From Escherichia coli (lineage in GTDB: Bacteria; Pseudomonadota; Gammaproteobacteria; Enterobacterales; Enterobacteriaceae), in the NCBI RefSeq assembly GCF_051903065.1, contig NZ_CP178438.1: a stretch of 64,000 nucleotides of DNA. One strand, 5' to 3'. The position numbers were made by a program, and so were the translations under genes. Each line of letters starts with the position of its first letter. Position 1 is the stretch's first letter. The notes below the pieces were generated by a model, which saw only the letters and a program-made list of their open reading frames with translations, was not told the DNA's origin and did no database searches. Below, in pieces: positions 28,786-30,531 of this stretch.

Positions 28786-29048
28786 ATCCGGTGCGCCGTA
28801 AAACCCCATCCTTCAGGGCGGGGATATAAGGCGCGGTTTTCCACCTGACCAGGTGTTTGCTGTTGTTCAATGTATTGGCGGATGACGGATATTGGCGCAC
28901 CTCCGCAGCTACTGGCAAAATAGCCAGGACTCCACAAAACGCCTTTGTAGTAATACCTGACTGCAATATCTGGTCGATCTCGTCGCAGTAACCTACCCGA
29001 TACGCCTTTGAGGCTGTTTACCAGACTGGATATCGCCAGTTTGGGAGG

Positions 29049-29276
29049 TTAGTTAATTAACAAATGGACGTGATCTGGTTCGCCATCCATTTCAACCAGT
29101 TCAGCTTCAAAATAAGCACATACATTTGAAAAGTAAGTGCGTAGTTTTTCTGTCGCGTCATGGTCAAAAATCTGGCGTCGGTATCTGGTGACAAAGACCA
29201 GGTGAACATGCATCAGGAAAACACAATGCCTTCCACGCCGGATATCGGTTTCTTTTTTCACAGACCAAAGTATCAT
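29049..29276 (-). pseudogene. IS200/IS605 TnpA (HUH Y1 transposase) N-terminal fragment
   Basis: 75-aa ORF with HUH motif (DHVHLLIN) but no C-terminal catalytic-Tyr region. Confidence 0.6.
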
Positions 29277-29343
29277 TTGACCTGTGAAACGATTACAGGC
29301 ATTTAAATTCCAGTTAAGACCAGGTGGTCAACAGGAGTGTGAA

Positions 29344-30492
29344 ATGAGGCGCTTCGCAGGCGCATGTCGTTTCGTTTTCAATCGTGCTCTGGCACGTCAG
29401 AATGAGAATCATGAGGCCGGTAATAAATACATCCCTTACGGGAAAATGGCTTCCTGGCTGGTTGAGTGGAAAAATGCCACTGAAACGCAATGGCTTAAAG
29501 ATTCTCCCTCACAGCCATTGCAACAGTCACTGAAAGACCTTGAGCGGGCTTACAAAAACTTCTTCCGGAAGCGGGCTGCTTTTCCCCGATTCAAAAAGCG
29601 GGGACAGAATGATGCATTCCGCTACCCGCAGGGCGTTAAGCTCGATCAGGAAAACAGCCGTATTTTTCTGCCGAAACTGGGCTGGATGCGCTACCGGAAT
29701 AGCCGTCAGGTCACGGGTGTTGTGAAAAATGTCACTGTCAGCCAGTCCTGCGGTAAGTGGTACATCAGTATTCAGACAGAAAGTGAAGTATCCACTCCGG
29801 CTCACCCTTCAGCATCAATGGTCGGGCTGGATGCTGGCGTGGCTAAACTCGCCACGCTGTCAGATGGCACAGTCTTTGAGCCTGTAAACAGTTTTCAGAA
29901 AAACCAGAAGACGCTGGCGAGACTTCAGCGACAGTTAAGCCGCAAGGTCAAATTCAGCAACAACTGGCAGAAGCAGAAACGCAAAATACAGCGACTGCAT
30001 TCCTGTATCGCAAATATCCGCAGGGACTACCTTCACAAAGTCACAACGGCCGTCAGCAAAAACCACGCAATGATAGTCATTGAGGATTTGAAGGTCAGCA
30101 ACATGTCAAAGTCAGCAGCGGGTACGGTCAGCCAGCCGGGGCGCAATGTCCGGGCAAAATCAGGTTTAAACCGTTCGATACTGGATCAGGGCTGGTATGA
30201 AATGCGCCGCCAGCTTGAGTACAAGCAGCTCTGGCGTGGCGGTCAGGTGCTTGCTGTTCCGCCAGCGTATACAAGCCAGCGTTGCGCGTACTGTGGTCAT
30301 ACAGCGAAAGAGAACCGCCTGTCACAAAGTAAATTCAGATGCCAGGTATGTGGATATACAGCGAACGCCGATGTAAATGGCGCTCGTAACATTTTAGCGG
30401 CGGGGCACGCCGTTCTTGCCTGTGGAGAGATGGTGCAGTCAGGCCGCCCGTTGAAGCAGGAACCCACCGAAATGATTCAGGCGACAGCCTGA
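29344..30492 (+). CDS. insQ: IS609 TnpB / InsQ (RuvC-like, zinc-finger; RNA-guided nuclease family)
   Basis: 382 aa from internal ATG with RBS; RuvC-like [21 protein letters not shown]; zinc finger CAYCGH...CQVCGY. Confidence 0.85.
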
Positions 30493-30531
30493 ACGTAGCA
30501 GGGATCCACGTCCTTCAGGGCGTGGAGGATG

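Follow-up and report, generated by a model that had tools for sequence, protein, structure and literature searches.

The 64,000-nucleotide stretch of Escherichia coli DNA analyzed here (contig NZ_CP178438.1; referred to as the window) carries a copy of the insertion sequence (IS) IS609 between the chromosomal genes ydcL and ydcO. The element has two divergent genes, tnpA (yncK), which belongs to the Y1 HUH transposases, and tnpB (insQ), which codes for a putative RNA-guided nuclease. What value this locus has is population-genetic: at one fixed position, tnpA appears to have been inactivated on at least three independent occasions and drifts neutrally, whereas the neighboring tnpB is intact and constrained. 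As judged from polymorphism among E. coli genomes, insQ is under purifying selection at this locus, and tnpA is neutral. We consider it very likely that the window element is a structurally complete but non-autonomous IS609 copy, fixed between ydcL and ydcO in many E. coli lineages. The features at the center of this analysis are as follows.

28788..30535, plus strand: complete IS609 element (IS200/IS605 family), 1748 bp, delimited by comparison of empty and occupied sites
28845..29276, minus strand: tnpA (yncK) pseudogene, full-length Y1 HUH transposase coding sequence, identified by Pfam Y1_Tnp matches on both halves and by alignment with an intact TnpA of 143 amino acids
29049..29051, minus strand: premature stop TAA (Tyr76 TAT>TAA), identified by alignment with an intact copy
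29284..30492, plus strand: tnpB/insQ, 402 amino acids, GTG start, intact gene for a predicted RNA-guided nuclease, identified by Pfam domains and structure-sequence alignment

Variation of tnpA and insQ among E. coli genomes

The left junction between ydcL and IS609 is present in 3265 of 5426 genomes (~60%), and about 40% of E. coli are without the insertion. Twenty further genomes, taken across the identity range, were combined with the window to give a sample of 21 copies at the same locus, among which the lesions of tnpA are distributed as follows.

Tyr76>TAA, the allele of the window: 6/21 copies, four of which also have a 5-bp deletion at 29161–29165
Leu96>TGA: 10/21 copies, K-12 among them
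Glu62>TAA: 4/21 copies, three of which also have a 1-bp deletion at 29235
No internal lesion: 1/21 copies

The natural tnpA stop codon is lost in all 21 copies, and each nonsense allele marks a different E. coli lineage. The insertion ancestor probably had a tnpA with the stop-loss only, the three nonsense alleles having arisen later and independently. The single copy without an internal stop or frameshift, that of E. coli Z1323HEC0393 (352–777), has just the shared stop-loss, which results in a C-terminal extension. Exact 57-nt matches to the Tyr76>TAA allele (Y76*) occur in 1017 E. coli records and those to the Glu62>TAA allele (E62*) in 719; the corresponding count for Leu96>TGA (L96*), 2598, is confounded, since this allele is also found at other loci such as ybcM–yedK.

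An uninterrupted 402-codon insQ is present in every one of the 21 same-locus copies, and the gene is also intact in three out of three copies at other loci. Five disabling events in tnpA (432 bp) stand against none in insQ (1209 bp; Fisher p = 0.003), and at the tnpA rate ~14 such events would be expected in insQ (Poisson P about 1e-6). Polymorphisms were counted in the first 14 copies. For insQ, 20 synonymous and 25 non-synonymous polymorphisms were found on 269 and 937 sites, respectively, which represents an excess of synonymous changes (binomial p = 8e-4); the mean pairwise dN/dS is 0.31, and none of the polymorphisms affects a catalytic or zinc-binding residue. In tnpA, 5 changes are synonymous, 13 are missense, and 3 are nonsense, in line with neutrality (p = 0.55), and 2 deletions come in addition. 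A first-pass annotation, made from the letters of the window alone, had suggested that the nuclease could be still active or maintained, and the population data (insQ intact in 21/21 copies, dN/dS about 0.3, tnpA neutral) lend support to this suggestion.

The tnpA pseudogene

The interrupted Y1_Tnp open reading frame (ORF) runs from 29276 to 29049 on the minus strand and ends in ...DHVHLLIN*, as had been noted in the first-pass annotation. The description of TnpA as truncated and of the element as decayed was, however, overstated. Compared with the IS609 copy of E. coli O157:H7, which has an intact tnpA, the window element is of equal length, with 0 indels and 37 substitutions, and the sole internal lesion in tnpA is one nonsense substitution at 29049 in an otherwise full-length frame; a TnpA truncated by deletion was rejected on the basis of this comparison. 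PF01797 (Y1_Tnp) matches both halves of the interrupted gene (E = 8e-17 and 3e-6), the C-terminal part corresponding to positions 96–121 of the Pfam profile. The HUH motif is located at 29064–29072 (His69-Val70-His71), and downstream of the TAA the same frame goes on to encode the C-terminal helix, in which the catalytic Tyr135 lies (codon 28872–28874; ...IRQYIEQQ). The claim that the catalytic-tyrosine region is missing therefore holds for the predicted product, a 75-residue fragment in which the HUH motif is present and the tyrosine absent, but not for the DNA, where the Tyr135 codon is still in frame. The proposed comparison of the TnpA C-terminus with intact IS609 copies gave a similarly divided outcome, in that the stop after DHVHLLIN is real and the C-terminal coding sequence is retained.

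The natural tnpA stop codon (28845–28847) is mutated to CAG (28847 A>G, Gln), so that the frame continues through the left end of the element to 28770. When the gene is repaired, its sequence resembles the TnpA structures of IS608 and ISDra2 (E about 1e-17 to 1e-19). Judging from these lesions, the tnpA of the window is non-functional, so this IS609 copy is non-autonomous, in agreement with the first-pass annotation. Earlier work has described both the yncK stop codon and the failure of the K-12 copy to transpose (PMC2891674), and mutation-accumulation lines yielded 0 IS609 insertions among 758 new IS insertions (PMC5009759).

The InsQ protein

The divergent tnpB is a plus-strand ORF with three Pfam domains and is intact, as predicted. 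The domains score above the curated cut-offs and comprise PF12323 (HTH_OrfB_IS605; residues 1–48, the full profile; E = 3e-13), PF01385 (OrfB_IS605; residues 162–277; E = 1.7e-34), and PF07282 (Cas12f1-like_TNB zinc ribbon; residues 304–370; E = 7e-24). InsQ aligns end to end with structures of ISDra2 TnpB (E = 2.7e-55), and its RuvC triad, D183/E267/D363, aligns with D191/E278/D361 of that protein (8bf8/8exa/8h1j). The zinc-finger cysteines (CxxC...CxxC) are C334, C337, C353, and C356. The RuvC motifs and the zinc finger are thus kept, as had been proposed, without inactivating substitutions in RuvC. Relative to ISDra2 TnpB, InsQ has a 15-residue insertion following the catalytic Glu.

The length of 382 amino acids given in the first-pass annotation corresponds to an older annotation and had to be corrected to 402, counted from the GTG at 29284. 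The start codon position of InsQ is an ATG in 23 of the 24 relatives examined, and the N-terminus MKRLQAFKF is common to them. We take the 402-residue form to be the true protein because the relatives start at the same codon and because the helix-turn-helix domain begins at residue 1. In these relatives, a conserved TATAAT is located 7–8 nt upstream of the tnpB ATG, which suggests a leaderless or near-leaderless mRNA. The corresponding region of the E. coli IS609 (29259–29286) has a TATCAT −10-like box and a GTG start, not TATAAT and ATG; on the opposite strand, this TATCAT/GTG region creates the ATG of tnpA.

Locus and element boundaries

The gene order in the window is tehB-ydcL-[IS609]-ydcO-sutR. 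A megablast search of 5,426 complete E. coli genomes with positions 28700–30600 returned a 100% identical match in strain TUM13936, where the locus is annotated as tehB, ydcL, tnpA (a pseudogene, with the Prokaryotic Genome Annotation Pipeline note “internal stop”), insQ (“RNA-guided endonuclease InsQ/TnpB family protein”), ydcO, and sutR. Comparison with one of the E. coli strains in which this site is empty provided the ends of the element and the following additional features.

28784..28787, plus strand: TTAT, the tetranucleotide that served as target, adjoining the left end on its 5' side and predicted to be the target-adjacent motif (TAM) of TnpB, from the empty-site comparison
28804..28824, plus strand: subterminal hairpin at the left end, CCCCATCC-TTCA-GGGCGGGG, containing a single A.C mismatch, recognized as a direct repeat of the right-end hairpin
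30505..30526, plus strand: subterminal hairpin at the right end, TCCACGTCCT-TC-AGGGCGTGGA; after it comes the conserved terminus GGATGTCAA, which ends in the cleavage site TCAA
30532..30534, minus strand: stop codon of ydcO, formed from the final bases of IS609 at its right end, as seen from the YdcO end at empty and occupied sites

The empty site in MS7163 reads ...CTTTTTAT/TATCGGTTTC... (as a longer stretch, ...GATGGCGCTTTTTAT/TATCGGTTTCTGTCAGCG...), with the insertion junction at ...TTTTTAT/TATCGG.... The element in the window starts with CCGGTGCG and ends with GGATGTCAA, and the comparison revealed no target-site duplication. Its true ends are 28788 and 30535, and the span of 28790–30520 assigned earlier needs to be revised to these positions. 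The left flank is made up of the ydcL terminator hairpin and its T-tract. TTAT or TTAC also occurs at the left flank of other IS609 insertions and of relatives in other Enterobacterales, and the terminus ...GGAGGATGTCAA is kept in nearly all of about 55 relatives. There are no terminal inverted repeats; instead, the left (28804–28824) and right (30506–30526) subterminal hairpins are direct copies on the same strand, 86% identical to each other, and the right-end hairpin covaries in relatives. The insertion next to TTAT without duplication, the same-strand subterminal hairpins, and the conserved terminus place the element in the IS200/IS605 family. The A.C mismatch of the left-end hairpin is due to position 28808, where the O157 copy has a G that restores the pair; conversely, position 30522 of the right-end hairpin forms a C-G pair in the window and a C.T mismatch in the O157 copy.

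The insertion point lies exactly inside the ydcO stop codon, and a new TGA is provided by the right-end bases TCA. As a consequence, the C-terminus of YdcO changes from ...ADRNR* at the empty site to ...ADRNRY* in the window. The longest ydcO ORF (30532–31830, minus strand) would encode 432 amino acids from a GTG, whereas genome annotations give 1176–1215 bp (391–404 amino acids); the choice of start codon differs among records.

The IS609 copy of K-12 MG1655 (NC_000913.3, 1503161–1504908) has the same locus, junctions, and length of 1748 bp. The window copy is 99.2% identical to it without indels, which confirms the earlier assignment as IS609-like. In K-12, tnpA is annotated as the pseudogene yncK (b4578) and insQ (b1432, 1209 bp) as “putative RNA-guided DNA endonuclease InsQ.” The two InsQ proteins are both intact with 402 amino acids and differ at three positions, whereas the tnpA genes were killed by different nonsense codons, Leu96>TGA in K-12 (28990 A>C) and Tyr76>TAA in the window (29049). 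IS609, a dead yncK, and InsQ as a putative RNA-guided endonuclease are thus already known from the K-12 reference annotation, with nothing new as a feature, and as far as the sequences go, the novelty relative to K-12 is limited to which nonsense codon killed tnpA. The copy in O157:H7 (TnpA WP_000604943.1, 143 amino acids) is identical in architecture and length and 97.9% identical in sequence, with the same TTAT and right-end terminus. It lies between yjfZ and ytfB, within a pseudogene of the TetR family, and is flanked by a different guide, CACATCAGTATGGTTT.... Its tnpA is uninterrupted and has the natural stop, whereas the window copy has the Tyr76>stop change, the stop-loss, and the A.C mismatch in the left hairpin.

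Predicted omega-RNA scaffold, guide, and target

Two further features concern the guide RNA that the element is predicted to encode.

30366..30535, plus strand: predicted scaffold of the omega-RNA (guide RNA), which covers the 3' end of tnpB and continues through the right end, based on covariation in 54 relatives
30536..30551, plus strand: predicted omega-RNA guide segment TATCGGTTTCTGTCAG in flanking DNA, antisense to the last ydcO codons, based on its position 3' of the right end

Relatives of the element were collected from 80 loci, one genome per species, at 58–94% amino-acid identity. For 54 of the 80 loci, the 220 nt up to and including the right end were aligned with MAFFT, and five helices were obtained from RNAalifold and a pair count (30366-70/30378-82, 30398-402/30408-12, 30419-23/30456-60, 30432-34/30446-48, and 30505-14/30517-26). 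The resulting scaffold spans the last ~125 nt of tnpB and the 43-nt right end. Standard pairs make up 94.8% of the scaffold cells, compared with 83.5% in column shuffles and 39–53% when the 3' partner is slid by 1–3 columns. Compensatory double changes are seen at 16 of 27 pairs, and none of 500 shuffles reaches the observed values. Helices 2–4 covary within the coding region (e.g., GC<->CG in 20 sequences), and this speaks for structure in the RNA, whereas the last helix is not independent evidence for RNA because it also forms the DNA hairpin recognized by TnpA. The single-sequence fold of the scaffold is more stable than that of shuffled sequences (minimum free energy (MFE) z = −2.65). A sixth hairpin across the tnpB stop (about 30478–30496, TCAGGC...GCCTGA) can be made out by eye and also appears in the MFE fold; it was left uncounted because it is misregistered by one column in part of the alignment. 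An Rfam scan of 27500–32000 (E<=1) returned no family at its gathering score. The sub-threshold scores for HgcC (22 bits vs 50), sot0042 (17 vs 88), and RAGATH-18 (25 vs 45) are suggestive, since HgcC and sot RNAs are associated with TnpB, but do not count as evidence by themselves.

Taken together, the alignments support a conserved, covarying RNA scaffold that spans the 3' end of tnpB and the right end, where the first-pass annotation had placed a guide-RNA scaffold. The region of about 30400–30520 that it had indicated is close to the covarying segment, although it ends 15 nt before the element does.

Following the established TnpB mechanism, the guide was placed at the ~16 nt right after the right end. 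This segment is identical in all same-locus copies checked, and TTAT followed by TATCGGTTTCTGTCAG is a perfect match to the empty ydcL–ydcO site. The insertion sites suggest TTAT as the TAM, and the empty site would then be the target; the occupied site would be protected because TCAA, which is not a TAM, precedes the guide match. An exact 12-nt repeat, ATATCGGTTTCT, occurs at 29242–29253 and 30535–30546, so that the last base of the right end and the first 11 nt of the guide recur in codons 8–12 of tnpA, and the omega-RNA guide would complement the 5' region of the tnpA mRNA. The chance of finding a specified 11-mer in the element amounts to ~8e-4 expected occurrences; still, this repeat is probably a coincidence, the guide being set by the insertion site. 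The repeat within tnpA was rejected as a self-target, the preceding 4 nt being CGGA and not TTAT.

Comparison with known systems

For ISDra2 and IS608, both the “peel-and-paste” transposition by TnpA and the TnpB-omega-RNA nuclease have been characterized experimentally. IS609 shares with ISDra2 the divergent arrangement of tnpA and tnpB and the conserved RuvC triad of TnpB, and with both elements the Y1 HUH family and a guide RNA, in IS609 a predicted one, specified by the 3' end of tnpB together with the right end. The right-end cleavage site TCAA and a TTAY target (TTAC for IS608) are likenesses to IS608. The differences are that InsQ has limited sequence identity to ISDra2 TnpB, that the target in the window is TTAT, not TTGAT or TTAC, and that the window copy has no working TnpA.

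A tnpB-like gene at a fixed chromosomal site without a working partner transposase is also reminiscent of TldR proteins, which are exapted TnpB homologues acting as nuclease-dead, RNA-guided transcription regulators. InsQ differs from these in keeping all three RuvC residues inside a complete IS with both ends, and it is not of the TldR class. The general excess of tnpB over tnpA genes is well documented. The independent, repeated death of tnpA beside a constrained tnpB serves as a neat illustration and a workable test system rather than representing a new kind of phenomenon; the locus offers a convenient natural system to ask whether a TnpB and its guide RNA are kept for homing and retention, or otherwise, once the transposase is gone. 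The TnpB of IS609 has been purified as one of nine candidates (PMC12781874); in the literature searchable for this report, its activity in the native host has not been shown.

Possible reasons for the constraint on insQ

The modest residual question is why insQ is constrained without a transposase of its own. The TnpB mechanism, reportedly established in the work of Karvelis (2021), Altae-Tran (2021), and Meers (2023), suggests a possible course of events. The tnpB transcript would be processed into an omega-RNA with its 3' ~16 nt (TATCGGTTTCTGTCAG) derived from flanking DNA, and the complex of InsQ with this RNA would recognize TTAT followed by the guide sequence, that is, the empty ydcL–ydcO site. 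InsQ would cut this empty site, normally the scarless site left behind by TnpA excision, and recombination with an occupied copy would restore the element. With its own TnpA absent, the window copy would be unable to excise, and InsQ would come into play only if another IS609 provided TnpA in trans or if horizontal transfer brought empty and occupied alleles together. Beyond the anatomy of the element and the constraint on insQ, we infer the steps of this mechanism from ISDra2 and IS608/ISGst. A speculative extension, which we regard as rather unlikely, is that IS609 between ydcL and ydcO acts as a transposase-independent “allele drive,” in which TnpB with its omega-RNA would cut the empty allele (TTAT-TATCGGTTTCTGTCAG) brought together with an occupied one by conjugation or transduction and so convert empty sites to occupied ones, or, in a variant, that InsQ has a host-level role. 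Allele drive, if true, would account for the purifying selection on insQ long after at least three deaths of tnpA and for the 60% insertion frequency.

Several points weigh against our interpretation of insQ as a maintained nuclease gene. The polymorphism analysis is based on simple site counting in 14–21 genomes and does not include a recombination-aware tree, and a dN/dS of 0.3 indicates only moderate constraint. Nuclease activity of InsQ, processing of the omega-RNA, and TTAT as the TAM are predictions. Expression of InsQ may be low, considering the GTG start, the TATCAT box, and the lack of a convincing promoter for insQ in a promoter/terminator scan, in which the sole promoter-like site was on the minus strand inside insQ. 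Finally, the A.C mismatch in the left-end hairpin could lower mobilization in trans.

Among other explanations, a host function, with InsQ and its fixed guide co-opted for a cellular role that has nothing to do with maintaining the transposon (e.g., RNA-guided binding or regulation where ydcO ends, control of ydcO through the antisense guide segment, or defense), would fit the purifying selection on insQ despite a dead tnpA in every sampled lineage, the fixed position in 3265/5426 genomes, a guide that is antisense to the ydcO 3' end, and a right end that supplies the ydcO stop. We nevertheless think such domestication improbable. The RuvC triad is intact, unlike that of known exapted, nuclease-dead TnpB-like regulators, and the guide has a perfect target solely in the empty site, which a genome carrying the element does not have. 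With about 40% of E. coli lacking the insertion, the function cannot be essential, and the combination of a dead or deleted tnpA with an intact tnpB at other loci, with other guides, fits a selfish role and not a locus-specific one. We give slightly less credence still to a neutral relic, in which insQ has merely escaped being broken so far, with protein and RNA idle and the ORF bound to decay. The absence of IS609 transposition from K-12 mutation-accumulation lines, the possibly weak expression signals (GTG start and degenerate −10 box), and the 25 non-synonymous polymorphisms in insQ are compatible with such a relic. It is difficult to reconcile, however, with five independent disabling lesions in tnpA and none in insQ among 21 copies sharing the same genealogy, with a synonymous excess (p = 8e-4) in insQ that is not seen in tnpA, and with catalytic and zinc-binding residues free of polymorphism.

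It is also conceivable, although hardly credible in our view, that the element is still autonomous and produces a full-length TnpA by readthrough of the stop or from another frame or start. The entire tnpA coding sequence does lie in one frame with a single TAA, and one sampled genome (Z1323HEC0393) is without the internal stop. However, TAA is an efficient terminator in E. coli, and loss of the natural stop in every same-locus copy would add a tail of ~25 residues after Gly143, eight residues beyond the helix with the catalytic Tyr. Moreover, lineages gather further frameshifts, consistent with a tnpA that was already non-functional, and tnpA polymorphism is neutral.

IS609 copies at other loci

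At the ybcM–yedK locus of E. coli E2863, an IS609 element (about 2831–4578) combines a tnpA carrying L96* and the stop-loss with an intact tnpB, and this copy differs from one of the same-locus copies by 10 bases. The sequences suggest that tnpA-dead elements have been moved by TnpA acting in trans or copied by recombination, and trans-mobilization is plausible. TnpB elements of the IS605 group are found in about 91% of E. coli genomes, with about two copies each (PMC9956272).

In E. coli OV24, the copy at the yhgE–hslO locus (2502–3915) has lost, by deletion, its left end along with the 3' half of tnpA and retains an intact insQ of 402 codons; this form recurs in several genomes. A gene resembling insQ (93% identical) is present on a 97-kb plasmid (NZ_CP074782.1, 39876–41127), where it adjoins a phage head-processing gene. 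This plasmid is probably a P1-like phage-plasmid and a possible vehicle for the horizontal spread of IS609-type elements.

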